Shown here: one piece after another, positions 1,007 to 15,141 of the stretch | How the letters are laid out: every line of letters begins with the position of its first letter | How positions within the stretch are numbered: position 1 is the stretch's first letter | NCBI GenBank assembly: GCA_937921735.1 | Contig: CAKZTQ010000004.1 | Location: 2,249-66,248, forward strand | Length of the DNA stretch: 64,000 nt | From: an uncultured archaeon | Lineage (GTDB): Archaea; Hadarchaeota; Hadarchaeia; Hadarchaeales; Hadarchaeaceae | Reading direction: 5' to 3' | Notes under the pieces: generated by a model | Database searches by the model: none | What the model was told of the DNA's origin: nothing | What the model saw: only the letters and a program-made list of their open reading frames with translations | Translations under genes and position numbers: made by a program

Positions 1007-2104
1007 ATGCCGATAAAAGCCCCCGATATCCCAATCTGGGAGCACGAGGGCTTGGATACGAGGACGCGCTGGGAGTTGATGGTGGCTGACATAAAGCGCG
1101 AGGTGACCTCGGGGGAGCGCGAGGGACAAGCGGTGCCCCCAACCAGAGCATGGGCTGTCACCTCGCTCCTTCGCAAGCTCGCCTCCAAGCAGACGAGGTT
1201 CGCCGACCTGCACGTCCACACCAGGATCTCCGACGGCTGGATCTCGCCCGGCGACGCCGTCGAGCGCGCGGCTAGGGTCGGGCTGGCAGCGATCGCGATC
1301 GCCGATCATGACTCGATAAGCGGCATCCAGACGGCGCTCTGGGCCGGTCGACAGTTCGGCGTGGAGGTGATACCCGCGGTCGAGGTGAGCTCGGGCATAG
1401 ACAACCGCGAGCTCCACATCTTGGGCTACTACATCGACTGGCGCGACAAGAAGTTCGCGGAGAAGCTCCTCGAGATCCAGGAGTTCAGGAAGGAGAGGGT
1501 GAAGCTGATAGTGGACAAGCTGAGGGAGCTCAACATCGACATCCCCTACAACGTCGTCATCGCCCTCGACGGGGGCGTCGTCGGGCGTCCCCACATCGCG
1601 CAGGCGATGGTAGATCTTGGCTACGTGCGCACCACCGACGAGGCCTTCGACAAGTACCTCGGCGTGGGCAAGCCGGCTTACGTGTCGAAGTACCCGCTCA
1701 CGCCGCACAAGGCGATCGCCCTCATCAGGAAGGTGGGCGGAATCCCCGTGCTAGCTCATCCTCTGTTCGCACGAGCCGACGACCTGCTTCCGGAGCTCAT
1801 CGAAGCCGGTCTACGCGGCCTCGAGGTCTACCACACCAAGCACGATGCCTCCGTCACCAAGCACTACGAGGAGCTGGCGAGGAAGTACGACTTGCTGATG
1901 GTGGGAGGCTCCGACTCACACGGCGTGGGAGAGGTGCCCATAGGCCATGTACGGGTGCCCTACTCCTTCGTCGAGAAGCTGAGGGAGGAGCTGGCGGCGA
2001 TGGGGGCAGCTCGCGGGGCGACGACGAATTCGATGCTCGCGGCGAGGGTCAAGGCGCACGAGAGGGGGAGGGCGGCGAATTTTAAGGCTGTAAAGACAAG
2101 ATAA
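1007..2104 (+). CDS. PHP-domain phosphoesterase (TrpH/YciV-like)
   Basis: DLHVHTRISDG, AIADHDS, GRPHIA, VLAHP, GGSDSHG motifs. AAGGAGG RBS upstream. ~60-aa N-terminal extension. Confidence 0.9.
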   Translation: MPIKAPDIPIWEHEGLDTRTRWELMVADIKREVTSGEREGQAVPPTRAWAVTSLLRKLASKQTRFADLHVHTRISDGWISPGDAVERAARVGLAAIAIADHDSISGIQTALWAGRQFGVEVIPAVEVSSGIDNRELHILGYYIDWRDKKFAEKLLEIQEFRKERVKLIVDKLRELNIDIPYNVVIALDGGVVGRPHIAQAMVDLGYVRTTDEAFDKYLGVGKPAYVSKYPLTPHKAIALIRKVGGIPVLAHPLFARADDLLPELIEAGLRGLEVYHTKHDASVTKHYEELARKYDLLMVGGSDSHGVGEVPIGHVRVPYSFVEKLREELAAMGAARGATTNSMLAARVKAHERGRAANFKAVKTR

Positions 2105-2116
2105 AAAGGGGGTCGC

Positions 2117-4519
2117 GTGCTATTCCGGAGGGTGAAGAAGCCCAAGCGCGTCCTGAGGGCCGCGGAGGAAGAGATCTACAGGCCCAAGGGACCTGCTCCT
2201 TCTAGGAGAGCCCACAAGCCCCTCGAGCTCGCGGAGGTGAAGGAGGAGCGGCCCCCTGAGGGGGAGCAGCCCCCGAAGTTAGAGGAGGTCGAGGTCCAAA
2301 CACCAGCCGAGGTGCCGGCGGAAAAGGTCGCTCCAGAGCCAGAGGTTTCGAAGCCGGTGGAGGCGCCGCAACCTGCTCAAGGGCGAGTCGGGGAACCCGA
2401 GGCTGAGGTGGTTGCGGAGGAGCTCGAGGTCGCCGAGCCCGAGGTGTCGAAGGGGACGCTCGCCGAGAGATCCATCGCTGAAGCCCTAGCGACCGACTCA
2501 GCCTTGGAGGAACTCAGGCGGAGGTTGGAGGCCAAGCCGGAGCTCGAGCTCCCGGCAGCGCCCAAGCTCGTCAAAAAACCCTCGGCGAGGAGGGCGGTCG
2601 TGAAGCTCGCCAAGAGGGCGAAGGCGGTGAGGGTCAGGAAGCGCCCATTGCCGAGGAAGAGAAAGCCGTCGGCCGAGAAACCGCGGGCAAAAAGGGGGGC
2701 AAGGGTCGTCAAAAAGCCCTCCCCGGTCGAGGGAAAAGTTAGGCCCGTCAAAAAATCCTCGGCAGCGAGGGTTGCGAGGCCAGCCGCGTTAAAGCCGATC
2801 GAGGGTCCTCGGCTGAAGGTGGCCGCCCGCTCGGCGGCACCCAAACCCGTGTCTAGGCCTCGCGCTAAGCTCGTGAAGCCTAGCAAGAAGTTGGCCAGGG
2901 CAGCTGCCCCATCCGTACCCGAGGCGAGGGCCATCGAGGCCGAGAAGCTCCCGCTGCAGGCCATAGCCTCCGACTTCGCCCTCGAGGAGCTCAAGCGAAA
3001 GCTCGAGGCCAAGCAAGAGGTCGAGGCCCTAAGGGAGTTCGAGGAGTACACCACCTTCGAGCCGCCCAAGGGCTACAAGGAGCTCGAGCGCTATTGGGTG
3101 GTGAAGCCCTACGCGTGGGCGGCCATCCTCTTCAACGAGGAGAAGAACGAACGCCTTTATTACTTAGTCGAGCCCACGCTGACGCCCCTCGAGAAGACGA
3201 TCCTCGAAACGCTCCACGAGCACCTCCTCGACCGCCTGACCTACGAGACGGGCAAGGAAAGGGACGCCGTCATCAGGGAGAAGGCCCTAGAGCTCCTAGA
3301 TGAGTACGGCCTGTCGCTCGACGATAAGTCCGTGAACAAGATCATCTACTACCTTAGGAGGAACTACGTCGGCTACGGCAGGATAGACGGCCTCCTGAGG
3401 GACCCGAGGATAGAGGACATCTCTTGCGATGGCGTCGACGTGCCGATCTTCCTCTACCATCGAGACCACCAGAACATCCGCACCAACATTGTGTTCGAGG
3501 ACGCGCAGGAGCTGGACCTCTTCGTCATCAGGCTGGTGGAGCGCGCGGGGAGGCAGATCTCCCTGGGCAGGCCCACGGTCGACGCCGCGCTGCCCGAGGG
3601 CTACAGGCTCCAGGCGACGATAGGCACGGAGATAACCACGCGCGGCAGCTCCTTCTCGATAAGGAAGTACACCGAGGAGCCCTTCACGCCCGTCGACCTC
3701 ATCCTGTATGGCACCTTCTCGCCCGAGATGCTCGCGTACCTCTGGCTGGCGACGGAGAACAAGAGGAACGTCATGATCGTCGGGGGCACTGCATCGGGGA
3801 AGACGTGCACGCTCAACGCCCTCTCGCTGTTCATCCCGCCCGACGCCAAGATCATCTCCATCGAGGACACCCGGGAGCTGACGCTCTACCAGGACAACTG
3901 GCTCGCCAGCGTCACCCGCGACGCCCACGGCGAGAGGGCGATAGACATGTACGACCTGCTGCGGCAGGCGCTGAGGCAGAGGCCGGAGGTGATCATCGTG
4001 GGCGAGGTTCGAGGCAAGGAGGCGCTAACGCTGTTCCAAGCCATGAGCACGGGCCACTCCTGCTACTCCACCATGCACGCGGGCTCCATCCAGGAGATGG
4101 TGCACAGGCTCGAGGGAGAGCCGATAAACGTCCCCCACCACATGCTGACGGCGCTCGACATCGTCTGCCTACAACTCCTCACCTACCACAGGGACAGGAG
4201 GGTCCGCCGCAACCAGAGCATAGTCGAGGTGCTGGGCGTAGATCCCGTGAGCGGGGCCCTGCGCACGAACCGCATCTACGAGAGGAACCCGATAACCGAC
4301 GAGTTCGAGAGGGTGGGCAACTCGCAGGTCCTGCTGGAGATAGCCCACGAGCGGGGCTGGAGCGCCGTGGAGCTCGAGAGGGAGCTGGACAACCGCAAGA
4401 AGGTGCTGGAGTACTTGGCCAGGAAAAACATGAGGCGCATAAGCGAAGTCTCGACGATAATAAGGCAGTACTACTTCGATCCCGCCAAGGTGATGGAGCT
4501 GGTGGAGCGCGGAGGGTGA
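2117..4519 (+). CDS. Type II/IV secretion (VirB11/FlaI/TadA-type) pilus assembly ATPase with long low-complexity N-terminus
   Basis: Walker A GGTASGKT, Asp box IEDTREL, Walker B IIVGEVRG, His box STMHA, EDISCDG motif. GTG start. Confidence 0.93.
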   Translation: MLFRRVKKPKRVLRAAEEEIYRPKGPAPSRRAHKPLELAEVKEERPPEGEQPPKLEEVEVQTPAEVPAEKVAPEPEVSKPVEAPQPAQGRVGEPEAEVVAEELEVAEPEVSKGTLAERSIAEALATDSALEELRRRLEAKPELELPAAPKLVKKPSARRAVVKLAKRAKAVRVRKRPLPRKRKPSAEKPRAKRGARVVKKPSPVEGKVRPVKKSSAARVARPAALKPIEGPRLKVAARSAAPKPVSRPRAKLVKPSKKLARAAAPSVPEARAIEAEKLPLQAIASDFALEELKRKLEAKQEVEALREFEEYTTFEPPKGYKELERYWVVKPYAWAAILFNEEKNERLYYLVEPTLTPLEKTILETLHEHLLDRLTYETGKERDAVIREKALELLDEYGLSLDDKSVNKIIYYLRRNYVGYGRIDGLLRDPRIEDISCDGVDVPIFLYHRDHQNIRTNIVFEDAQELDLFVIRLVERAGRQISLGRPTVDAALPEGYRLQATIGTEITTRGSSFSIRKYTEEPFTPVDLILYGTFSPEMLAYLWLATENKRNVMIVGGTASGKTCTLNALSLFIPPDAKIISIEDTRELTLYQDNWLASVTRDAHGERAIDMYDLLRQALRQRPEVIIVGEVRGKEALTLFQAMSTGHSCYSTMHAGSIQEMVHRLEGEPINVPHHMLTALDIVCLQLLTYHRDRRVRRNQSIVEVLGVDPVSGALRTNRIYERNPITDEFERVGNSQVLLEIAHERGWSAVELERELDNRKKVLEYLARKNMRRISEVSTIIRQYYFDPAKVMELVERGG

Positions 4520-4539
4520 TAAAGGCGCGAGGGTGAAGC

Positions 4540-6345
4540 TTGACTAGGAGGTTGGCGATCCGTTTATTCGGCAGGTGGGCGCGGGGCAAGAAGTACGAGG
4601 CGTTGCGGGAGAAACTAAGCAGGGCCCGCATGATGATCTCCGCCGACGCCTACGCGGCGCAGGCGATCTTCTACTCCTTCCTGGTCTCCCTCGCGGTCGC
4701 TGCGGCGGGGAGCCTAGCCATCTGGCTCTTGTATTCCCTCGATCTGCCCCTCCTGGGCTTGGTCCTGCTTATGGCCGCCATGCTCGGGTATGTGACCTAT
4801 CGCCTGTTCATGTTCTACCCGTCGCTGGCCGCAAATGAAAGGGCGCACGAGATAGACCTAGCGCTCCCGCATGCGGTCAGCTTCATGCACGCGCTGAGCA
4901 GAAGCGGCGCTACCGTGACCGATATCTTCAGGGAGCTGAGCACCCGCCAGGACGTGGGAAAGATCGCCGAGGAGGCGAAGGTGTTCATGCGGGACGTCGA
5001 GCTATTGGGTCAAGACCCGCTGACGGCGCTCCGCAACCTCTCGCGGTCGACGGCGTCGAGGAGGTTTAAGAACTTCCTAGAGACGCTGACCTCGATCGTC
5101 GAGACCGGGGGCGACATCACCGGCTACTTCGCGAGCAAGTGCGCGGAGTACAACGCCGAGCTCAGGGACGAGCAGAGGAAGTTCATAGAGACGCTCGGGC
5201 TGCTGGCGGAGATCTACATCATCATGCTCATCTTCGCCCCGCTCTTGATCCTTCTCCTCCTCGTGACGATGGGCGCGATGGGAGGGGTCTCAACCGCCCT
5301 CCTCTACCTCGTCGCTTATGTGGCGATCCCCGTTGGCTCCATCATATTCATGGTGTTGATCAAGGTCATTTCGGGCGGCAGGCTCAAGGTGAAGTTGGGC
5401 AAGGTCGGGCCCTCGGAAACCTTTAGGGGTGTGGAGGTGCGGGGGGAGGCGATCAAGAAGGAGATGTTGGAGAGCATCGCTAGAGGGGTGACGATGGCTA
5501 GGCTGAAAGCGGCGATCCTCCACCCCTTCAAGACGGTCTCGGAGAACCCCCACTACGTCTTCTTCGCCAGCGTCCCTGCATCTGCCCTCTTCCTGCTTCT
5601 TTACCGCCCGCTCAGCACCTCCTCCGCCTTCTTCGCGATCCTCATCGCCCTCGTTCCCTACGTCGTCGCCTTTGAGTCCAAGTCAAGGAGGGTGGAGAGG
5701 ATGGAGGGCGCGCTGCTCGATTTCCTTAGGTCGCTCGCGAGTGGCGTCAAGTCAGGTTTGACGCTGCCTCGTGCCATGGCGGTGGCATCGACCACTGATT
5801 TGGGCCCGCTCGGCAAGGAGGTCAGGAGGATGGGCACCGACGTCAGGTGGGGGGTGTCAGCGGCCGAAGCTCTGGCTAGGTTCGAAGCCCGCGTAAGGGA
5901 GTCTGGCATGCTCTCGAGGGTGGCGACGCTGATAAGGAAGGCGAACGAGGCGGAGTCGGATATCTCCGACGTGCTCGACGTCCTCATCGACGACGTTGCG
6001 ACGACCCGCTCCCTGCAGCGCGAGCGTAGGGCAGCGATGGCGACGTACAAGGTCATCATCTTCCTCGTTTTCTTCGTGTTCCTCTTCACCGTCTACATGG
6101 TCGTCAAGAACATCATCCTCATGACCGCTCCGGCCGGAGAGATGGAGATCTTCTTGTTCAGCGGCATCAACCCACGCCTTTGCACGATCGTCTTCATGCA
6201 CGCGGCGATGCTGGAGGGCTTCTTCGCCGGGCTGGTGGGCACGCTGATGGGCGAAGGCGACCTCAGGTCTGGCCTTAAGTACTCGCTGCTGATGATGATC
6301 GCGGCTTATGCAGTGTTCGCCGTGCTCATTTTCCCAATCATCTAG
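4540..6345 (+). CDS. TadC/FlaJ-type pilus membrane platform protein (two T2SSF domains)
   Basis: Follows the ATPase. Multi-TM protein with two repeats (LPHAVSFMHALSRSG; LLDFLRSLASGVKSGLTL). C-terminal FAGLVGTLMGEGDLRSGLKY. Confidence 0.9.
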   Translation: MTRRLAIRLFGRWARGKKYEALREKLSRARMMISADAYAAQAIFYSFLVSLAVAAAGSLAIWLLYSLDLPLLGLVLLMAAMLGYVTYRLFMFYPSLAANERAHEIDLALPHAVSFMHALSRSGATVTDIFRELSTRQDVGKIAEEAKVFMRDVELLGQDPLTALRNLSRSTASRRFKNFLETLTSIVETGGDITGYFASKCAEYNAELRDEQRKFIETLGLLAEIYIIMLIFAPLLILLLLVTMGAMGGVSTALLYLVAYVAIPVGSIIFMVLIKVISGGRLKVKLGKVGPSETFRGVEVRGEAIKKEMLESIARGVTMARLKAAILHPFKTVSENPHYVFFASVPASALFLLLYRPLSTSSAFFAILIALVPYVVAFESKSRRVERMEGALLDFLRSLASGVKSGLTLPRAMAVASTTDLGPLGKEVRRMGTDVRWGVSAAEALARFEARVRESGMLSRVATLIRKANEAESDISDVLDVLIDDVATTRSLQRERRAAMATYKVIIFLVFFVFLFTVYMVVKNIILMTAPAGEMEIFLFSGINPRLCTIVFMHAAMLEGFFAGLVGTLMGEGDLRSGLKYSLLMMIAAYAVFAVLIFPII

Positions 6346-6460: not shown

Positions 6461-6883
6461 GTGATAAACGATAAGAGAGGGGTATCGCCAGTAGTTGGTA
6501 CCATTCTATTGATCGCAGTGACGGTAGCGCTTGCAGCGGTCATCGCGACCATCGTCGGCAGGATAGGCGTCCCGGCGAAGGCACCGTATGCGATCCTGGG
6601 CGTGACTGCAGAGGACAAGGACAGTGAAAATGTTAAAATCACCATCATTCACAGGGGTGGAGATGTCCTTAGCGTAGGCGAACTCAAAGTGAAGGCTGAA
6701 AATAGCAATAAGGATTTGGTAGATGTTACCATGAACTGGGCCGGCACCCTATTTTCTGCAGGTGAGGAAGCGTCTGGCACTTATACCTATGGATCTAACC
6801 CGGAGGGAAAAATAATCAAAGTAAAAGTTATCCACACACCCTCTGGCCAACTGCTGCTCGATACCACCGTCAGAATAGAATAA
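6461..6883 (+). CDS. Archaeal type IV pilin (probable major pilin, DUF1628-like N-terminus)
   Basis: Class III signal peptide DKRG/VSPVVGTILLIAVTVALAAVI, then I.IIHRGGD motif. Has its own TATA-like element upstream. Confidence 0.92.
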   Translation: MINDKRGVSPVVGTILLIAVTVALAAVIATIVGRIGVPAKAPYAILGVTAEDKDSENVKITIIHRGGDVLSVGELKVKAENSNKDLVDVTMNWAGTLFSAGEEASGTYTYGSNPEGKIIKVKVIHTPSGQLLLDTTVRIE

Positions 6884-7079: not shown

Positions 7080-7853
7080 GTGAAAAATTTCATGAGGGAC
7101 GATAACGGAGTTTCGGTGGTTACGGGGGCAATATTGGTCGTTGCGGTGGGCTTCATCATCTTTTCGATCTTTATCGGGTTCTGGGTACCCAGGCAAGGAT
7201 ACGAGCGGGAACGCGAGCACATGGAGGAAGTCAGGAGGGGCTTCTCAAAGCTGAAGTCAGCGATCGAGACGATCGAGCTTCTCGGCTCCAGGAGCATAGA
7301 CCTGAAGATGGCCGCCGACCCCCCACCGATCTTTGGCTGGCCGGCGATGGGCGGCACCTTGTGGTTCGATAACTCGAGTGGGACGCTTAGCTTTCAAGCG
7401 AACAACGTTCACTACGCCGACCAAACTTGGGTCTACGAAAATGGGGCGGTGATATTGGTGCAACAAGGCAAGAGCGTAATGGCCTCCATGCCGGCGATGG
7501 TGGCGGCCATAGATGATAACGGTGAGAACATAAGGATCGAGGTCCGCACCGTGCGGTTGAAGGGTAAGGGTTTTTCGATAGGGGGGACTGGTGCTCGCAA
7601 CATCGTTTTGGTTAAGGAAAATGTCATAATTGAAAACCATCACATCTCAAGCCTGACTATAGCGATAAACTCGGCTTATCCCGATGCTTGGCGGGAGTAC
7701 CTCAGCCACCTCGAGTCGACGCTCAACGCCAAGGGCTACGACGCCGAGGTCAGCGATCTCTCCATTATTATTCGTGGAAAGGTCTACGACAGCGATGTGA
7801 ATGACATTTACTACCTCAGGAAAATCATAGAGGTTGGAGTAAGCGTCGGGTGA
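7080..7853 (+). CDS. Minor pilin / class III signal-peptide protein
   Basis: DDNG/VSVVTGAILVVAV signal. Shares REREH.EEV, KMAADP, DQ.W.YE.GAVIL.QG and W.EYLS motifs with the next gene. Confidence 0.85.
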   Translation: MKNFMRDDNGVSVVTGAILVVAVGFIIFSIFIGFWVPRQGYEREREHMEEVRRGFSKLKSAIETIELLGSRSIDLKMAADPPPIFGWPAMGGTLWFDNSSGTLSFQANNVHYADQTWVYENGAVILVQQGKSVMASMPAMVAAIDDNGENIRIEVRTVRLKGKGFSIGGTGARNIVLVKENVIIENHHISSLTIAINSAYPDAWREYLSHLESTLNAKGYDAEVSDLSIIIRGKVYDSDVNDIYYLRKIIEVGVSVG

Positions 7854-7857
7854 GGCA

Positions 7858-9708
7858 ATGGGCTTACGGGGAAGCTCACGCGGGATTATAAAGGAGAAAA
7901 GAGGCGTCTCCGTAGTATTTGGCGCGATCATCGTCCTAGCGATCCTCCTTGTGGCTTCTTTTGCTTACATTGCGGCCTGGGTGCCGAGCGAAGGACATCA
8001 CCTAGAGCGCGAGCATGTGGAGGAGGTGGGGGACGCCTTTCTCGAGCTGAAATCCGCCGTCGACACCCTTGAGTTGCTCGCTTCGAGGAGTGTGGACGTA
8101 AAGATGGCCGCTGATCCCCTACCCATTTTCCAAGGTGCGAGGTCTGGGGGGCGCCTGTCGGTCGAGCCGGCCGGCGCCAAGTTCTTCTACGCCGAGAGCT
8201 TGAAGGTCGACAATACTACCTCAACCGGCTACCGGGACAAGCTCGTCTTGACCCTCACGCCCACCAAGCTCACGGACTACCTCATCATAGCCTCAGCCGA
8301 GGTCAGCAGGAGCGGTACGGCGAGGGCAAACGTTTGCTTGGAGATCAACGGCGTCGTCTATCAAGAGCTCGAGAACGCCGTGAAAAATCCCGGCGATTGG
8401 TACCCCTTCAACGGCTTAAAGAAAGTTAGGCTCTCAGGCCCCGCCACGATAAAAATCCGCTACAGGTCGACGGTCGCTGGTCAAGCGGCGCTCATAAGGA
8501 ACGCCCGCCTCGCGGTCTGGGCGATCGCCTGCGAATACGCTGAAAACGAGGCGGAGGCCTCGACCGTCGGCACAGAGGACAGGGTCACCTTGAGGTTCAC
8601 TCCGCTGCGGAGCGATAACTACCTTCTCATCGCCTCCGCGACGATAGTCAACAGTGGCTTGGTGAAGCTGCGGGTGAACGAGAACCTGTTTGCGGATGCC
8701 CAAAGGACGAGCACCACCAGTTCTACCTACACTTTCGGTGTAATCAAGAGGGTCTCCTTGGCGGGAGGCCAAGAGGCAAGGGTGGTGCTCCAGTACGAAA
8801 AGGGAAAGATCAAGCACGCCCACGTCGCGGCGATACCATTGAGCCAACTGTCGAACCATTATTACGCCGAGGTCGAAGGCGAGCTCTCGCAGGTGGTCAA
8901 CGCCTACTCGAGCCAAGCGGAGGAGCACTTGCTCCTCGGCACCGTGCACCTCAGGCTGCACCCAGTGCAACAGGTGGGCTGTAGGTTCTTGACCGATGGC
9001 GAGAACTCCCAGGACCCAGGTTTCGTGGGAGAGACCTCGTCCGACTGGGAGAGCTTCTTTGTGATGGATGAGAAGGCGCTGGGTGAGGGCGCTCACGTGG
9101 ATAAGCTGCAGTGCTGGGGCAAGGCGTCGTGGTCCGCGAAGTTCGGCAGGCTGATATCGCTGGAGGTCCCCTCCCTCCACCGCCTGCGCCACGGCCTCAT
9201 CCGTTTCGACGCGAACAACGCCTACTACGTCGACCAGAGCTGGATTTACGAGTTGGGCGCCGTCATCTTGGCGCAGGGCAATGCCAGCTTCATGGTCTCG
9301 AGGTTCGAGGACGTGGGCTTGGTCGTCGTCGATGACAAGGACATCTACGGCAATCCTTTGCCCGGCGACAACATCCGCGTAGAGGTCAACTTCATCAGGA
9401 TCAAGCGATTCGACGCTTCCATCAGCTCGACGGGCACCTCGACGATTTTGCTCGCGAGGGAGAACTCGCGCTACGAGGTAGAGAACGGCCCCCGCGAGAA
9501 CGTCGTCGTGAGGGTTAACTCGACGTACAGGAACGCTTGGGCTGAATACCTCTCCTGGCTCGCGCGCGAACTGAACGCCAAGGGCTACCTCGCGGGCTTC
9601 GATAACCGCGCGCTGAGACTCACCATTTTAGGTAAGAAGACATCACCAGGCGAGAACGACATCTACTACTACGAAAGGGTAACGGAGATAGAAGTGAGCT
9701 TGACATGA
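7858..9708 (+). CDS. Large minor pilin/adhesin, paralog of the upstream gene with a ~340-aa insertion
   Basis: EKRG/VSVVFGAIIVLAIL signal. N- and C-terminal parts align by eye with 7080..7853. The insert has three YAE-initiated repeats. Confidence 0.85.
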   Translation: MGLRGSSRGIIKEKRGVSVVFGAIIVLAILLVASFAYIAAWVPSEGHHLEREHVEEVGDAFLELKSAVDTLELLASRSVDVKMAADPLPIFQGARSGGRLSVEPAGAKFFYAESLKVDNTTSTGYRDKLVLTLTPTKLTDYLIIASAEVSRSGTARANVCLEINGVVYQELENAVKNPGDWYPFNGLKKVRLSGPATIKIRYRSTVAGQAALIRNARLAVWAIACEYAENEAEASTVGTEDRVTLRFTPLRSDNYLLIASATIVNSGLVKLRVNENLFADAQRTSTTSSTYTFGVIKRVSLAGGQEARVVLQYEKGKIKHAHVAAIPLSQLSNHYYAEVEGELSQVVNAYSSQAEEHLLLGTVHLRLHPVQQVGCRFLTDGENSQDPGFVGETSSDWESFFVMDEKALGEGAHVDKLQCWGKASWSAKFGRLISLEVPSLHRLRHGLIRFDANNAYYVDQSWIYELGAVILAQGNASFMVSRFEDVGLVVVDDKDIYGNPLPGDNIRVEVNFIRIKRFDASISSTGTSTILLARENSRYEVENGPRENVVVRVNSTYRNAWAEYLSWLARELNAKGYLAGFDNRALRLTILGKKTSPGENDIYYYERVTEIEVSLT

Positions 9709-9890
9709 TTGTGAGGGCCACGGTCGTGGAAATGCTTTTCTCCACTTTGGAGATTACCTGGCTGACGCCGTTGTCCCTAACGCATCCCGGCGCGATGTCT
9801 CTGCATTCGAAGGAGGTGAAATCCGCGCTTTGAGTAAGAGCATCTTTTACTACGAGAGGGTCAAGGGGATCAAGGCAGTCAGAGGTCCCA
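9705..9890 (+). pseudogene. Possible eroded duplicate of the pilin C-terminus
   Basis: One frame reads ...GNAFLHFGDYLA...SIFYYERVKGIKAV, compared with the pilin's RNAWAEYLS...DIYYYERVTEIEVS. An ATGA-coupled start (MIVRAT...) at 9705 is in a different frame. Confidence 0.3.
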
Positions 9891-10854
9891 TCGAGATGCC
9901 CCTTCTGAGGGCCCGCAGGAAATCTTTAAACTTCTCGGCCCTAACTACGCCTCCCGCCGCAGCTGGGTGTCCTCCACCCGAGCCACCTATGCTCGCCGCG
10001 GCATCACCGATGAGCCTCCGCAAGTTTACCTCAGATCCCCTCGCCCTCCGGGCGCTAAGCCGGATGAAATCCCCATCTAGGAAGGTCGCGATCCCCACCT
10101 CGGCGTCCGTCACCTGAACCACGTACGACGCGGCTTTTCCCGTCGCCATGAAGGGCACGTCGCTCACGATGGCGATGTTTTTAGCGATTTTTTTCACGTT
10201 TCTCTTGACGTATGACCTCAACATCATCTCCTGGGTCAAGCCCAGGTAAGCCCTGCCCAACAGGTCTCGGATGTCGGAGGGCCAAAGCCCGCTGGCGAGC
10301 CCGTTGACCACCTCCCTTCTGAAATAGTCGTCGCCCCTGCTAACGTCGAGGGCCTCCTCCAGCAAAAAAGTCTCCAAGTACACAGTCCTCCAATAATGCC
10401 TAGACATCAACCTACGCATGGTGGGCGTGTCCTGTTGATAGTCTCCGATCGCACCCAGGAGGGCGATGTATTCCAACGATTCGGGGGGTTTGAAGTATTT
10501 CAAAGCAAGTTCGGAAGTGCAGATATCCGTTTCATGTACGAATGCGCTACAGCCAAGGCTCTTTCGGTTTATCCCTGGGGGAACGGGGTGATGATCGATG
10601 TAGATGATTTCGCGTGACTTCGCCAGCTCCCGAAAAAGGTTCCTTATCTCCTCCTTCTCCACCGCGTCTATCCCTAAGTCCAAGATGATGATCGTCTTCC
10701 AGTTCGGGGGCAGCGCCCGCAGCCTTGACAGGAGGGTGAAGGGCTCCTCGAATTCCACATCGGCTTTCGGATAAGCGATCTTGGCCAAGGCAGCGGAGCA
10801 AATACCATCGACATCTCTATGCGTGACAATCCCCACACCCATTTTTGCGTTCAC
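9850..10854 (-). CDS. DHH/DHHA1 family phosphoesterase
   Basis: THRDVDG, ILDLG, IDHH, GAIGD and C-terminal GGGHPAAAG motifs. Start taken at GTG 10854 (alternative ATG 10842). Confidence 0.9.
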   Translation of the reverse strand: MNAKMGVGIVTHRDVDGICSAALAKIAYPKADVEFEEPFTLLSRLRALPPNWKTIIILDLGIDAVEKEEIRNLFRELAKSREIIYIDHHPVPPGINRKSLGCSAFVHETDICTSELALKYFKPPESLEYIALLGAIGDYQQDTPTMRRLMSRHYWRTVYLETFLLEEALDVSRGDDYFRREVVNGLASGLWPSDIRDLLGRAYLGLTQEMMLRSYVKRNVKKIAKNIAIVSDVPFMATGKAASYVVQVTDAEVGIATFLDGDFIRLSARRARGSEVNLRRLIGDAAASIGGSGGGHPAAAGGVVRAEKFKDFLRALRRGISMGPLTALIPLTLS

Positions 10855-10965
10855 CCCCCTCACAGCACATAAAACAACGATGTTTAAAAGTTTGTTGATC
10901 ATTTGACATCAAAAGGCGATTTTTGATAAAAAAACGTGCAAAAAAATACAAAATCGCCAACAACA

Positions 10966-12192
10966 TCAGCTGCGGCCGATCAGGCAAATGGTTACCGTCT
11001 GGTTTCGATGGCCCACCGGCCCGCCTTCGGTGAAGCCCTGTTCTCCATACGTGTAAAAGCCGACCATCGGGGCATCCCCTATCACCTTTCGCAGCTCCCT
11101 GAGCTCCTCCCTCGCGCCCTCCGGCCCGAGGAGCTTATAGCGAGCCACGCAGTTGAACACTATCGCGGCTTCGACCTCCCGCGGTTTGCCGCATTTCTCC
11201 ATCGCCTCCGACGCAGCGTCTACAGCAGCCTTTATGAGGTCCTCCCTGCGCCCATCCATCAGCCTGAGCGCCACTCCCTCGGGCACCCTTGAGAAGAAGG
11301 AAATGCTCCCATCCTTCAGTAGGGCTTGGGGATGCCTGAGCCAGATCTCGCCCGATAGGTCTGGCATGCCCAGGGGATTGCTCAGGCCCTTCTCCCACGC
11401 GAGGACCCCCTCCTGCAGGTCCTCAAAGCTGATCTTGAGCATCTCGGCGTACACCTCGGCGGCCGGCCTATGGTTAAGTTTCTCCACCACCCGTCCCGAC
11501 GATTTGGTGACCAAGGCCAGCCTATCGAGGGGACGCCACCCGTGCTTGCTGCTAAAACCCACGGGGTTGTTCGTCGCCACCAAAGCACACGCCACGGAGT
11601 CGGTGAAGGCGCCGTCGGTGCAGAACTGGTAGGTCCGCTTGAGCTTGAGGTCGTCGCCGGCGGAGCCCCCCACGATCGGGAAGAACCCTCCCAGCACATC
11701 CTTCATGCCCTCGATGACCTCCTCTTCCTGCCCTGAGAGCCCATCCGGGAACATCAACACGAAGAAGGGCACGTGGCCGCGTCGCTTGGCCCCGAGGCCC
11801 GGGGAGGTAAGGTAAAGCGCCGGATATCCGAGGTCCCTGATCGCCGAGGAAGCGGCCTCCCTCCCCGCCTCCCTGGGCTTCTTCTTCACGTTCTTGCCTA
11901 ACCCTATGCCAGCCCTCGCGATGTCGGCGGAGATCACCATCACCGCCACCGATCCCTCCAGCGGGCCGGCCGGGGTTATCTCCCCCGCGGTGGTACATCC
12001 TGCGAGGGGCACAGGGCCCAGCACCGCCTTCACGCCCTCTAGGAGTTTTTTGGGGTTGTACCTAGAGGACGAGAAGACCAAGCACAAGCCCACGGGCCGA
12101 CCGGAGGTCGCCTTTATGGCTTTAGACGCGGCTTCCTTTCCCGCCGCGAAGGGATCCCTGAGCTGGCTGACGCCGACCCCAGCCGACCTCAA
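10966..12192 (-). CDS. Stand-alone FIST (FIST_N + FIST_C) sensory protein
   Basis: LAGCTTAGEI, GGSAGDD, HGWRP, FNCVAR and GFYTYGEQ motifs. Confidence 0.92.
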   Translation of the reverse strand: MRSAGVGVSQLRDPFAAGKEAASKAIKATSGRPVGLCLVFSSSRYNPKKLLEGVKAVLGPVPLAGCTTAGEITPAGPLEGSVAVMVISADIARAGIGLGKNVKKKPREAGREAASSAIRDLGYPALYLTSPGLGAKRRGHVPFFVLMFPDGLSGQEEEVIEGMKDVLGGFFPIVGGSAGDDLKLKRTYQFCTDGAFTDSVACALVATNNPVGFSSKHGWRPLDRLALVTKSSGRVVEKLNHRPAAEVYAEMLKISFEDLQEGVLAWEKGLSNPLGMPDLSGEIWLRHPQALLKDGSISFFSRVPEGVALRLMDGRREDLIKAAVDAASEAMEKCGKPREVEAAIVFNCVARYKLLGPEGAREELRELRKVIGDAPMVGFYTYGEQGFTEGGPVGHRNQTVTICLIGRS

Positions 12193-12252
12193 TCGTTCAC
12201 CTCTAGCTCCTTTTTCGATGGCATCGCTTTTTAGTCTTTTGAATCGGTAGCG

Positions 12253-13158
12253 CTACCTGCGTAGCCCCTCGATCGCCTCGGGTCTTACGATGAACAGGCC
12301 CGTCGAGCTGGTGATGTTCACCTCAAACCTTGAGAGCGCATCCGGGCGGGTCGAGAGCAGTCCATAGAACTTCCTAAAGCACAGCGACCTTCTCCTCTGG
12401 ATGGGCCCCGCCCTTTCCCACTCGAACGCCAGCACGCCGTCCGCGCACGAGGCGATCTCCTCCTCCATGCGCTTGTCGAACAGGTTCGTCGTCAGGTCGG
12501 TGTAGATGAGACCTCCCCAAGCCTTAGACGCCCGCTGGAGCCCCCGCAGAAACAGCATGAACTCGTACTGCCTGGCCTCGGTGTCGGAGTAGAGCCTAGC
12601 GAGGTCGGTCAGGCTATGTAGGAAGATCACGTTGCCCTTCGCGTGGGCGGAGAGGAAGTCCGCGAGGGACTTCAGGGCCCCCTTGGGCTTCCCCACCGGC
12701 CCGCCGACCGTCATCTTGAGACCGGCCAGGGCCTCGGCCAGCGAGCTGAGCTTCTCCCTCCTCCTTTCGGCTGCCCACTCCTCCGACACCCACTCGAGGG
12801 GGACGGGGGAGGTCATGAAGTAATCCTTTGAGAGGTCGGCGAACTTCACCCTCTTTTCGAAGGGCTCATAGAGATCGCGGTCGAAGCTCATCATCACCTC
12901 GTTCATGAGGTCCGAAGGCGAGCGGGTCAGCGTGACCCACCAGAGCTCCTTCGGGAGGACGATGTTGGCCCCCCCAGGCGACGGCAGGCGACCAGCCTTT
13001 ATGGCGGCGAGCATTATGAGCGAGCTCATGGCAAACTCCGTGTTGCCCGAGCCTATCTCACCCATCAAAAGTACCAAGGAGCCCGCGGGGAAGCCGCCGC
13101 CCAAAAGCCCGTCGAGCGAGCTTATCCCGCTGGGGATCACTTTCAGCTTGCCGGTCAT
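12253..13158 (-). CDS. KaiC/RAD55-like RecA-fold protein with degenerate Walker motifs
   Basis: IPSGISSLDGLLGGGFPAGSLVLLMGEIGSGNT (Walker A Lys replaced by Asn); VIFLHSL (Walker B Asp replaced by His); ADGVLAFEW...RKFYG C-terminal motif. Confidence 0.85.
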   Translation of the reverse strand: MTGKLKVIPSGISSLDGLLGGGFPAGSLVLLMGEIGSGNTEFAMSSLIMLAAIKAGRLPSPGGANIVLPKELWWVTLTRSPSDLMNEVMMSFDRDLYEPFEKRVKFADLSKDYFMTSPVPLEWVSEEWAAERRREKLSSLAEALAGLKMTVGGPVGKPKGALKSLADFLSAHAKGNVIFLHSLTDLARLYSDTEARQYEFMLFLRGLQRASKAWGGLIYTDLTTNLFDKRMEEEIASCADGVLAFEWERAGPIQRRRSLCFRKFYGLLSTRPDALSRFEVNITSSTGLFIVRPEAIEGLRR

Positions 13159-13206
13159 ATCACCATCATCCTCCACTCCTTACGCGTTGGACCTTAAACC
13201 CGCCCG

Positions 13207-13932
13207 TCAGAGGGTGAGTTTGGCCGCGAGGCCGCGGAGCGCCCTCGAGGCGGGACTCTTCGGCTTGTGTACGACCACGGGCTTCCTCAACCTCACCGCC
13301 TCCCCCACCGCCGGGTCCTCGTCTATCGCGCCAAGCACTTGGACTTTGAGCTTCTCCTCGACGTTCACGTTCCTCGCGGACTTTCCTCCAAACAACCTGT
13401 TCAGCAGCGAGGTCCTCTTCACCCTGTTTACGATGGCCCCGCCCACTTTCGCCTCCATAACTTCGGCGACCGTCCTCAGTTTCGCCGCCGCTTCAACCGC
13501 TGTGGGGTCGGGCGTCACCAACAGCAGGATCTCGTCCGCCGCCCGCAACGGGGCGAGGCTATACTTGTTCAAGCCCGGGGGGGCATCTATGAGGATGTAA
13601 TCGTAGCCCTTAACTAGCCCCTCCACTACGTCCTCGAGCTTGTTGGGGTCCGCGCTCAGGAAGCCACCTATTGAAGGGCCCGAGGGCATGACGTCTATGC
13701 CATGCGCGGAGTAGATGGCCTTCTCGGCGTTCACCTTCCCCCCGAGCACCTCGTGTAGCGTGACGTAGGTCTCGGCCAGCCCCATGACCGTGGCTATGCC
13801 ACCCATAGCGAGGTCGGCGTCGATGACAAGGGTTTTCTTGCCCATTTGCCCTAGGCAAACCCCCAAATTCGCGGTGGCGGTGGTCTTCCCGACACCACCC
13901 TTCCCTGAAGTTATGGTGTAAACTTTGGACAT
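13207..13932 (-). CDS. minD: MinD/ParA family ATPase
   Basis: Deviant Walker A SGKGGVGKTT, VIDADL, YILIDAPPG, VTPD, IVNRV motifs. Confidence 0.9.
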   Translation of the reverse strand: MSKVYTITSGKGGVGKTTATANLGVCLGQMGKKTLVIDADLAMGGIATVMGLAETYVTLHEVLGGKVNAEKAIYSAHGIDVMPSGPSIGGFLSADPNKLEDVVEGLVKGYDYILIDAPPGLNKYSLAPLRAADEILLLVTPDPTAVEAAAKLRTVAEVMEAKVGGAIVNRVKRTSLLNRLFGGKSARNVNVEEKLKVQVLGAIDEDPAVGEAVRLRKPVVVHKPKSPASRALRGLAAKLTL

Positions 13933-13965
13933 GTGAGACAGTTAAATAGTTGAATACATTTGTAT

Positions 13966-15141
13966 TTAAGCCATCCGCGGGCCGCGCGAGCGAAGCTCCT
14001 CCACCGCCTGCCTTATGCGCTCCACGGCTAGCTTGATGTTCTCCTGCGTGTTCGCGTACGAGATGCGGAGGTGTCCCTCGCCGTGGCGGCCGAAGGCCGT
14101 GCCGGGGGAGGTCACCACCTTTGCCCGCTCGAAGAGATAGTTGGCCAGCTCCTCAGAGTTCAGGCCAAGCCCATCCACACTGGGGAAAGCGTAGAAGGCG
14201 CCCTGCGGCGTCGGGCATTCGAAGCCCTCGATGGAGTTCAGGAGCCTTACCACCAGCCTGCGGCGCCTGTCGAACTCCTCCACCATCTCTCGCACGAAGT
14301 CCTGGGGTCCACGAAGCGCCTCCAGCGCGGCCCATTGCGCCGGCGTGTTCGTCGACGAGGTCACGTTTTGGTGCACCTTGAACATGGCCCGCATCAGCTC
14401 CTTGGGCGCGCAGATGTAGCCCACCCTCCAGCCGGTCATGGCGTACGTCTTTGAAAAGCCGTTCACGAGGATGACGCGCTCCGTTGCCCCCAGCGCGGGT
14501 AGGCAGACGTGCTCGAGGCCATCGTACACGAACTTCTCGTAAATCTCGTCGGATATAACGAGTAGGTCATGCTCGCCGGCGATGTCGAGGATCTCGTGCA
14601 GCGGTCGCTCGGGCATCACGGCGCCAGTAGGGTTGCTGGGGAAGTTCAGCATCACCATCTTCGTGCGCTCGGTGATAGCCCGCTCCACCTCCTCCGGCCG
14701 CATCCAGAAGTCGGGCCCGCTCACGGGCACGCTCACCGGTCGTCCGCCGGCTATCCTGACAGCCGGGGCATAGGTTATGTAGCCCGGGTCCGGAACTAGC
14801 ACCTCGTCGCCGGGCTCGAGGAAGGCGGCGAGGGCGCAGAAGATCGCCTCGGTGCAGCCCACCACCACCATTATTTCTTCCTCCGGGTCATAGTCGAGGC
14901 CATACTCGTTCGAGTAGCGCTCGGCTATGGCTTGTCGGAGCTCGAGGATGCCAGCGTTTGGGGAGTAGTGCGTCCTGCCCTCGTCCAGCGCCCGCTTGGC
15001 CGCCTCGCATATATGTGGGGGCGTGGCCATGTCGGGCTCGCCCACGCCCAGGCTTATGACATCGGGGCTGCCCGTGGCGAGGTCGAACAGGCGCCTCACG
15101 AAGGAGGGCTGGATCTCTCGCAGACGTGTAGCCTCCCGCAT
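13966..15141 (-). CDS. PLP-dependent class I/II aminotransferase (aspartate aminotransferase-like)
   Basis: LGVGEPD, NFPSNPTG, SDEIY, SKTYAMTGWRVGY motifs. Confidence 0.93.
   Translation of the reverse strand: MREATRLREIQPSFVRRLFDLATGSPDVISLGVGEPDMATPPHICEAAKRALDEGRTHYSPNAGILELRQAIAERYSNEYGLDYDPEEEIMVVVGCTEAIFCALAAFLEPGDEVLVPDPGYITYAPAVRIAGGRPVSVPVSGPDFWMRPEEVERAITERTKMVMLNFPSNPTGAVMPERPLHEILDIAGEHDLLVISDEIYEKFVYDGLEHVCLPALGATERVILVNGFSKTYAMTGWRVGYICAPKELMRAMFKVHQNVTSSTNTPAQWAALEALRGPQDFVREMVEEFDRRRRLVVRLLNSIEGFECPTPQGAFYAFPSVDGLGLNSEELANYLFERAKVVTSPGTAFGRHGEGHLRISYANTQENIKLAVERIRQAVEELRSRGPRMA

Follow-up and report, generated by a model that had tools for sequence, protein, structure and literature searches.

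The window, i.e., the whole stretch of 64,000 nucleotides analysed here (positions 2,249 to 66,248 of contig CAKZTQ010000004.1), comes from a genome of Hadarchaeota (1.06 Mb, 60 contigs, 83% complete) whose closest public relatives carry the names Candidatus Hadarchaeales and Hodarchaeaceae. Three consecutive genes of its minus strand code for a MinD-type ATPase, a KaiC-like protein deprived of its catalytic motifs (hereafter pKaiC) and a protein with FIST domains, and they lie close to a type IV pilus operon. The comparison of this locus with its relatives leads to a reading that is considered as probable: MinD and pKaiC would be two cytoplasmic accessory components of the adjacent type IV pilus, and FIST a genus-specific add-on. 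The three genes are the following:

13932-13207, minus strand: MinD, 241 aa
13158-12253, minus strand: pKaiC, 301 aa from ATG
12192-10966, minus strand: gene with FIST_N and FIST_C domains, 408 aa, TTG start

An alternative GTG upstream, at 13176, would lengthen pKaiC by 6 residues.

MinD adjoins pKaiC in 10/10 close Hadarchaeota loci. All eight out-of-genus loci of the full-length type in the window's family (L003-L010) have the order MinD→pKaiC→pilin: the pilin, of about 157 aa and with a class-III signal, begins 0-8 nt after pKaiC, and more pilins or DUF7289 genes often come next. Fifteen regions were also fetched around more distant pKaiC matches, from other Hadarchaeota genera and families. 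PilB (49-69% identity), TadC, MinD (33-57%) and pKaiC (28-43%) are found within a few kb of each other in 13 of the 15. The order PilB→TadC→MinD→pKaiC with convergent pilins, i.e., the layout of the window, is present in L185, L187 and L189. The further orders in the 13 regions are: (i) pKaiC→MinD→PilB→TadC; (ii) pKaiC divergent from MinD→PilB→TadC; (iii) MinD after TadC with pKaiC before PilB. Since the linkage is kept despite this shuffling of gene order, a functional tie of MinD and pKaiC to the pilus, i.e., to PilB and TadC, is supported by good evidence from neighbourhood.

The distribution over 66 Hadarchaeota genomes points in the same direction: pKaiC and this PilB clade are both present in 23 genomes, pKaiC only in 5, PilB only in 6 and neither in 32 (Fisher p = 6.6e-8, the test being uncorrected for phylogeny and many of the 66 genomes being incomplete metagenome-assembled genomes). 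A link of MinD and of the KaiC-like protein to the type IV pilus had been proposed in an earlier note on this DNA; it is borne out by the gene neighbourhood in nearly every relative and by the co-occurrence of pKaiC and PilB.

The pilus itself is clearly recognised. A PilB/VirB11-type ATPase, a TadC-type platform and pilins with class-III signals are gathered in one locus (PF00437, PF00482, PF07790 and DUF7289). The operon (PHP, PilB, TadC and three pilins) is on the plus strand and ends at 9708:

2117-4519, plus strand: PilB-type assembly ATPase, 800 aa (PF00437, PilB3_N, PilB3_C)
4540-6345, plus strand: TadC/PilC-type membrane platform (PF00482, two stretches)
6461-6883, plus strand: pilin with class-III signal, Pilin_N (PF07790)
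7080-7853, plus strand: pilin with class-III signal, DUF7289-type (Pfam match)
7858-9708, plus strand: pilin with class-III signal, DUF7289-type (Pfam match)

Signal sequences of the KRGVSPVVGTILLIAVT type are read directly in the translations at the N-termini of the three pilins. PilB of the window is 49-69% identical to the MinD/pKaiC-linked PilB of other Hadarchaeota and 46-53% identical to the pKaiC-linked PilB of Methanomicrobiales; it is only 25-31% identical to the paralogs of its own genome.

At its N-terminus, PilB of the window is extended by about 340 aa (window 2117-3140); this stretch is basic (23% Lys+Arg), devoid of Cys and longer than in the relatives, the open frames of which have mostly 570-700 aa. 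An assignment to Makarova subclade 4F, characterized by a Cys-rich N-terminus of the ATPase, was tried and rejected: there is no Cys in the first 340 aa of the window PilB and a single one in the first 150 aa of the Methanoculleus PilB. In the sister lineage (G040/G071, contig C25:2807-4687, same genome as L002), the PilB ortholog matches in two pieces within one open frame of 1122 aa, which suggests an intein or another large insertion. G063 and G064 contain PilB paralogs whose open frames have 1307-1335 aa.

pKaiC consists of one domain (301 aa), to be compared with the two tandem domains of clock KaiC. The AlphaFold model (pLDDT 86.4, pTM 0.83) has a single KaiC-type domain, with an insert of about 60 aa at residues ~110-172 that contains two long helices. 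Foldseek matches it to the KaiC CI domain and Pyrococcus PH0186 (E ~1e-12 to 1e-14) and to Sulfolobus FlaH 4YDS (TM 0.73), the target-normalised TM of these matches being 0.72-0.77. PF06745 reaches 28.1 bits (gathering threshold 26.6) with a match limited to residues 8-47. The ArlH model NF052589 gives 36.1 bits for a cut-off of 215, and no ArlH is found above cut-off anywhere in the window genome.

The active site of pKaiC is lost. Walker A reads GEIGSGNT, i.e., Lys is replaced by Asn; the family consensus is His, and in an alignment of 29 members of the pKaiC family this position is occupied by His, Asn, Ala, Ser or Tyr and in no case by Lys. Thr-Arg stands in place of the catalytic Glu-Glu found after strand 2 in KaiC (FTR/LTR instead of FEE). 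The Asp of Walker B is His (LHSLTD in place of the KaiC IDSL). All three being replaced, the label of pseudo-KaiC given by the earlier note is fully justified. Because the catalytic site is lost, a relay by KaiC-style phosphorylation is excluded on the basis of these motifs, and any signalling by pKaiC would need binding. The conserved surfaces of pKaiC include the motifs RGLQRAAKxWGG and DLARLYSD.

The pKaiC family recurs, with 30-40% identity, in Methanomicrobiales and Methanoperedens, including cultivated Methanoculleus, Methanospirillum and Methanogenium. It is divergently adjacent to PilB-TadC in 59 of the 60 loci with enough upstream sequence, PilB being about 50% identical to that of the window. 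MinD is absent from these Methanomicrobiales/Methanoperedens pKaiC loci, and an active single-domain KaiC (GTGKT) comes after pKaiC in 69/70 of them. Judging from the neighbourhood, the partner of pKaiC is MinD in Hadarchaeota and an active KaiC in methanogens.

In these loci (L011-L080; e.g., L014 9695-11502) the dead KaiC-like gene is followed ~0-80 nt further on by the active single-domain KaiC, both being divergent from PilB-TadC. The dead and active proteins could assemble into a heteromeric KaiC ring that would serve only a motor of the pilus type. In Methanoculleus palmolei, no recognisable pilin genes are present near the KaiC pair and V-type ATPase genes come next. A DPANN locus (L090 1-1471) contains TadC, a gene of 148 aa and a KaiC-like gene with the degenerate P-loop GPIGSHKL, at about 4.5 kb from a FIST/KaiC-like pair; the gene with the degenerate P-loop codes for a further KaiC-fold protein that is linked to a pilus and modified in its active site.

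MinD of the window passes the archaeal model TIGR01969 minD_arch (216.4 bits, cut-off 201.75) and remains below the cut-off of the bacterial model TIGR01968 (118 bits vs. 212.9). The deviant Walker A (SGKGGVGKTT), DADL and IDAPPG are intact, and they are kept in all 22 pilus-linked MinD relatives aligned, except in one N-terminally truncated row. The best solved relatives are the archaeal MinD 1HYQ, 1G3Q and 1ION, and FleN and FlhG are also among the solved relatives. The AlphaFold model has a pLDDT of 89.7. A C-terminal amphipathic membrane-targeting tail is found neither in MinD of the window, which ends with ...LAAKLTL, nor in the 22 pilus-linked relatives.

A basic-amphipathic segment is located inside MinD, at residues ~171-185 (window 13381-13422), directly after the NRV motif. 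A segment of this kind (type K/R-x-S/T-F/L-L-x-K/R-L-F/K, e.g., KRTSLLNRLFGGK) follows NRV in all 22 pilus-linked MinD (L001-L010, L178-L190). It is lacking in MinD 1HYQ, where the alignment has a 7-residue gap. In the AlphaFold model it corresponds to a low-confidence loop (pLDDT ~60), in which residues 176-180 make a short helix. This segment could serve as an internal element for the binding of the membrane or of a partner.

The window MinD is the single MinD homolog detectable by tblastn in this small genome, and the NCBIfam model that it matches is named 'cell division ATPase MinD'. Both points would suit a role of MinD and pKaiC in cell division, chromosome segregation or general protein positioning, the proximity of the pilus being incidental. 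Such a role is nevertheless hardly credible: the linkage with PilB/TadC or with pilins persists through rearrangements and across two phyla, pKaiC co-occurs with this PilB clade and, in what the reports concerned describe, the archaeal MinD homologs studied, i.e., MinD4 and MinD2 of Haloferax, position motility structures and not the division ring (bioRxiv 10.1101/2020.04.03.021790; PMC11588486).

With MinD and pKaiC taken as accessory components of the pilus, the following functioning may be proposed by analogy. The docking, placing or licensing of the PilB-TadC motor at the membrane would be the task of MinD, in the form of an active ATP-dependent dimer. TadZ/CpaE has such a task in bacterial Tad pili, FlhG/FleN in flagella, and MinD4 in the motility machinery of Haloferax. 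pKaiC would sit on the motor ATPase as an adaptor without hydrolysis, in the manner of ArlH on ArlI in the archaellum. It would work with an active partner, either MinD (Hadarchaeota) or the neighbouring active KaiC (Methanomicrobiales).

The gene order on the minus strand of the window is MinD, a 48-nt gap, pKaiC, a 60-nt gap, FIST and DHH, and the MinD-pKaiC-FIST set converges on the pilus operon with DHH alone in between. The open reading frames, their co-orientation, the two gap lengths and this convergence, as given in the earlier note, were all reproduced. The 48-nt gap holds a ribosome-binding site GGAGTGGAGG...GGTGAT (GGAG/GGTGAT) and the 60-nt gap a ribosome-binding site GGAGCTAGAGGTGA. 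No T-runs or hairpin were seen in either gap when the sequence was read by eye and folded. The sigma-70 promoter/terminator scan, a model ill-suited to archaea, yielded nothing; the intergenic signals are thus those read by eye and folded. A terminator-like element, the stem of which was folded by ViennaRNA, is located after FIST and precedes DHH:

10958-10911, minus strand: terminator-like element 3' of FIST, hairpin GGCGATTTT...AAAATCGCC around two T7 runs, then TTTT
10842 (longest open reading frame 10902) to 9850, minus strand: DHH/DHHA1 phosphoesterase (PF01368, PF02272)

Because both gaps hold a ribosome-binding site and the terminator-like hairpin is found only after FIST, the most economical reading of these signals is one MinD-pKaiC-FIST transcript, DHH being separate.

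The comparison with two congeneric assemblies gives dN/dS values of 0.10-0.12 for MinD, pKaiC and FIST (0.10 for pKaiC and 0.11 for FIST), with dN and dS nearly equal among the three genes. MinD, pKaiC and FIST are therefore real genes maintained by purifying selection and not chance open reading frames. The values of dS with reference to L001 and L195 are uneven over window 9850-15141: 0.25 for the flanking aminotransferase, 0.75-0.95 for MinD, pKaiC and FIST, and 1.7 for DHH. Because of this unevenness between the pilus-accessory block and the aminotransferase, the block seems to have a history unlike that of the adjoining housekeeping gene (recombination or divergent allele).

FIST is a stand-alone FIST_N+FIST_C protein (PF08495, E = 1.3e-47, 162.6 bits; PF10442, E = 7e-34, 117.2 bits). 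The NosP equivalog model gives 160.8 bits for a cut-off of 450. The order MinD-pKaiC-FIST-DHH is the same in L001 and L195/L196, i.e., the genus shows it without variation in three assemblies. A recent horizontal transfer of FIST was considered and rejected: its GC (0.635) and GC3 (0.81) are like those of the neighbours.

Small KaiC-like ATPase genes are beside FIST in 4/7 look-ups of archaeal homologs with 37-47% identity. The nearest FIST relatives outside the lineage (44-47%; L088, L090 and L092) are each divergently beside a small KaiC-like gene. These KaiC-like neighbours are orthologs of one another (39-40% identity), GTGKT is intact in two of them, and the flanking genes differ in all three loci. 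In L096 (FIST 39% identity; 1325-5030), an operon contains dCache, DUF3795, FIST, Roadblock/LC7 and a KaiC-like/DUF7504 gene (P-loop PPLTGKK). An archaeal signalling network of the Roadblock/KaiC type may include FIST. A FIST-Roadblock/LC7 pair is also observed in L097 (803-2509).

Three further FIST loci from the DPANN phylum of L088, L090 and L092 (25-38% identity) have no KaiC-like neighbour. None of 80 metagenomic FIST loci (mostly 33-38% identity, probably bacterial, i.e., a negative background only) is beside a KaiC-like, MinD or Roadblock gene. With the three DPANN loci, the FIST/KaiC-like link is narrowed to one FIST subclade. The subclade of the window has come beside KaiC-fold genes in about three separate ways, which is suggestive of a FIST/KaiC-fold partnership.

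Several points weigh against the reading proposed at the beginning, in addition to the limits of the Fisher test given above: (i) the PilB ortholog (74-77% identity) and MinD-pKaiC-pilin are on separate contigs in most genomes of the family to which the window belongs; (ii) the putative contacts pKaiC-PilB, pKaiC-MinD and FIST-pKaiC are deduced from gene order only; (iii) the FIST Pfam model matches 3/66 Hadarchaeota genomes, i.e., the window's, the congener G009 (the genome of L001) and G047, and FIST is absent from the other 63; (iv) L002, the next lineage out, with a pKaiC 81% identical, has MinD-pKaiC, a small pilin, PIN-type toxin-antitoxin genes and the same convergent pilins, and is devoid of FIST and DHH; (v) L088, L090 and L092 come from one DPANN phylum and are not fully independent; (vi) FIST relatives elsewhere pair with a response regulator, with Roadblock or with nothing recognisable.

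Because FIST is absent from 63/66 genomes and PIN toxin-antitoxin genes are found at the same spot in the sister lineage, FIST is, as far as this distribution tells, a late genus-level addition at a variable insertion site. In L002 (8845-10113), the slot of FIST and DHH is occupied by PIN-domain (VapC-like) and small AbrB-like genes.

It is conceivable that only MinD and pKaiC are pilus-related and that FIST and DHH are unrelated passengers, with another signalling task, in a variable spot between convergent pilus operons. This is a possible explanation, though not a probable one. The rarity of FIST, which adjoins pKaiC in the window's genus only, and the content of L002 at the same position are in its favour. 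Moreover, FIST homologs with 68% and 62% identity stand in unrelated contexts, the 68% one after a membrane protein and a small gene without known function; FIST of G047, where no pKaiC was found, comes after a response-regulator gene; and most FIST loci have no KaiC-like neighbour. On the contrary, a mere passenger fits less well with a gene that is co-oriented, separated by a 60-nt gap with a ribosome-binding site and followed by the only terminator-like hairpin. Its dN, dS and dN/dS are also the same as those of MinD and pKaiC, and at least two further, independent arrangements place the nearest FIST subclade beside KaiC-fold genes. Because of these operon signals, of the matching rates, of the native composition and of the KaiC-like neighbours of the nearest relatives, FIST would be more than a passenger.

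Another explanation takes the model of the earlier note literally: the three parts would make up an ancient and conserved pathway, with FIST as the sensor of a ligand, the KaiC-like protein as the relay of the signal and MinD as the component that gates or localises the pilus motor. The gene order of the window and of the two congeneric assemblies, as well as the FIST/KaiC-like adjacency in a few other archaea, are in line with it. It is nonetheless very unlikely. The synteny survey that the note had proposed finds the trio in one genus only, which, by the terms of the note itself, refutes it as a conserved module. In addition, the KaiC-like proteins that accompany FIST elsewhere are of another family, in which the P-loop is active, FIST/KaiC-like loci elsewhere are without MinD, and pKaiC, deprived of ATPase and autokinase motifs, cannot relay through a KaiC phosphorylation cycle.

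With FIST considered as a genus-specific add-on to a pilus equipped with MinD and pKaiC, its position at the 3' end of the MinD-pKaiC unit would most likely mean that it adds a small-ligand input (possibly of the heme/NO type) by binding the KaiC-fold protein. This is the least supported step of the proposed functioning. That FIST controls the pilus here is, on the genomic context, doubtful without being negligible. A stronger version, in which a FIST sensor is wired into the pilus motor via a dead KaiC/ArlH-like adaptor and a TadZ-like MinD, independently of chemotaxis and two-component systems, and in which FIST and the KaiC-fold protein form an unrecognised archaeal sensor-transducer pair, is rather unlikely.

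The place of DHH must be considered separately. Its longest open reading frame starts at 10902 (MINKLLNIVV...), the conserved DHH core starts from MGVGIVTHRDVDG, and a GAGGGGGGTGA ribosome-binding site precedes the ATG at 10842, which is probably the true start. DHH has its own GAGGGGGGTGA ribosome-binding site and is positioned after the terminator-like element. It is beside FIST in L001 and L195 and absent from L002, and DHH and FIST appear jointly in this genus only. The membership of DHH in the module is uncertain.

To our knowledge, almost nothing is known about the post-transcriptional regulation of archaeal adhesion pili. The pilus gene set described here (PilB, TadC, MinD and the dead KaiC-like gene) is conserved across Hadarchaeota, and its pKaiC part reaches cultivated Methanoculleus and Methanospirillum. 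These four genes provide a concrete testable hypothesis for research on archaeal surface structures. pKaiC points to a pilus counterpart of the archaellum ArlH, which would have given up ATP hydrolysis and would work with an active partner, MinD or KaiC. The pilus-linked pseudo-KaiC is thus a worthwhile biochemical target, and the genus that bears FIST is a natural case of a sensor added to a pilus core. If FIST were indeed wired to the pilus, a pathway would lead from a small molecule to pilus assembly without chemotaxis or two-component systems.

Four known systems can be compared with the window locus. The first is ArlH (FlaH). The likeness resides in a single-domain KaiC/RecA fold and in the linkage of the gene with an ATPase of the PilB/ArlI type and a platform of the TadC/ArlJ type. 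However, Walker A and B are retained in ArlH, which binds ATP, whereas pKaiC has lost those motifs and carries an insertion of ~60 aa; moreover, the window locus codes for pilins and not for archaellins.

The second comparison concerns TadZ/CpaE and FlhG/FleN, with which MinD shares a MinD/ParA fold and, in relatives, a gene beside that of the pilus ATPase. The order MinD→PilB→TadC of L181-L184, L186 and L188 mirrors tadZ-tadA-tadB/C. The N-terminal receiver-like domain of TadZ/CpaE is lacking in the window MinD of 241 aa, for which the model CpaE_hom_Actino gives 48 bits vs. a cut-off of 154.

The third system is iKaiC, i.e., the inactivated KaiC-like ATPase domains reported in the archaeal KaiC signalling network (Makarova, Galperin, Koonin 2017, as cited in PMC5847659). 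As far as they are described there, pKaiC resembles them: it has a KaiC-superfamily fold, has lost its catalytic motifs, is conserved under selection and is among signalling genes.

The fourth is NosP (PMC8846402), a bacterial nitric-oxide/heme sensor that consists of FIST_N+FIST_C alone and controls the kinase NahK. FIST of the window has the same stand-alone two-domain architecture, and NosP regulates a neighbouring signalling protein by contact. The difference is that FIST of the window adjoins a dead KaiC-fold protein, and that no histidine kinase or c-di-GMP enzyme is near it. FIST belongs to no described pilus locus, and a literature search returned no paper combining 'FIST domain', KaiC and archaea.

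The closest precedent for the pilus link is the comparative genomics of Makarova, Koonin and Albers (2016; PMC4858521). According to its account of pilus regulators, FlaH-like and FleN/MinD-like ATPases are the most abundant ones linked to archaeal type IV pili, KaiC-family genes (arCOG01172/arCOG01173) are beside the VirB11(PilB)/TadC operon of Methanomicrobia, and FleN/MinD (arCOG00589) is a pilus regulator. This Methanomicrobia arrangement, as presented there, is like that of L012-L080, in which the first KaiC-like gene is homologous (30-40%) to pKaiC of the window; the two are very probably the same. The claim of the earlier note that the trio is uncharacterised is thus half right: it does not hold for the pilus link of MinD/FleN and KaiC-family proteins, which was published in 2016 (PMC4858521), and it stands for the other half.

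The comparison leads to the conclusions that: (i) the pilus link is largely anticipated by the 2016 work; (ii) the trio is too narrowly distributed for a general module; (iii) the window locus differs from what that paper says of such loci (PMC4858521), since Hadarchaeota are outside its census, MinD replaces here the active KaiC, and that account does not mention that the first KaiC-like gene has lost all its catalytic motifs; (iv) four elements appear to be new, i.e., the complete four-gene set in Hadarchaeota, the swap of partner between MinD and an active KaiC across phyla, the finding that no member of the pilus-linked family has kept any of the catalytic motifs, and the addition of FIST.

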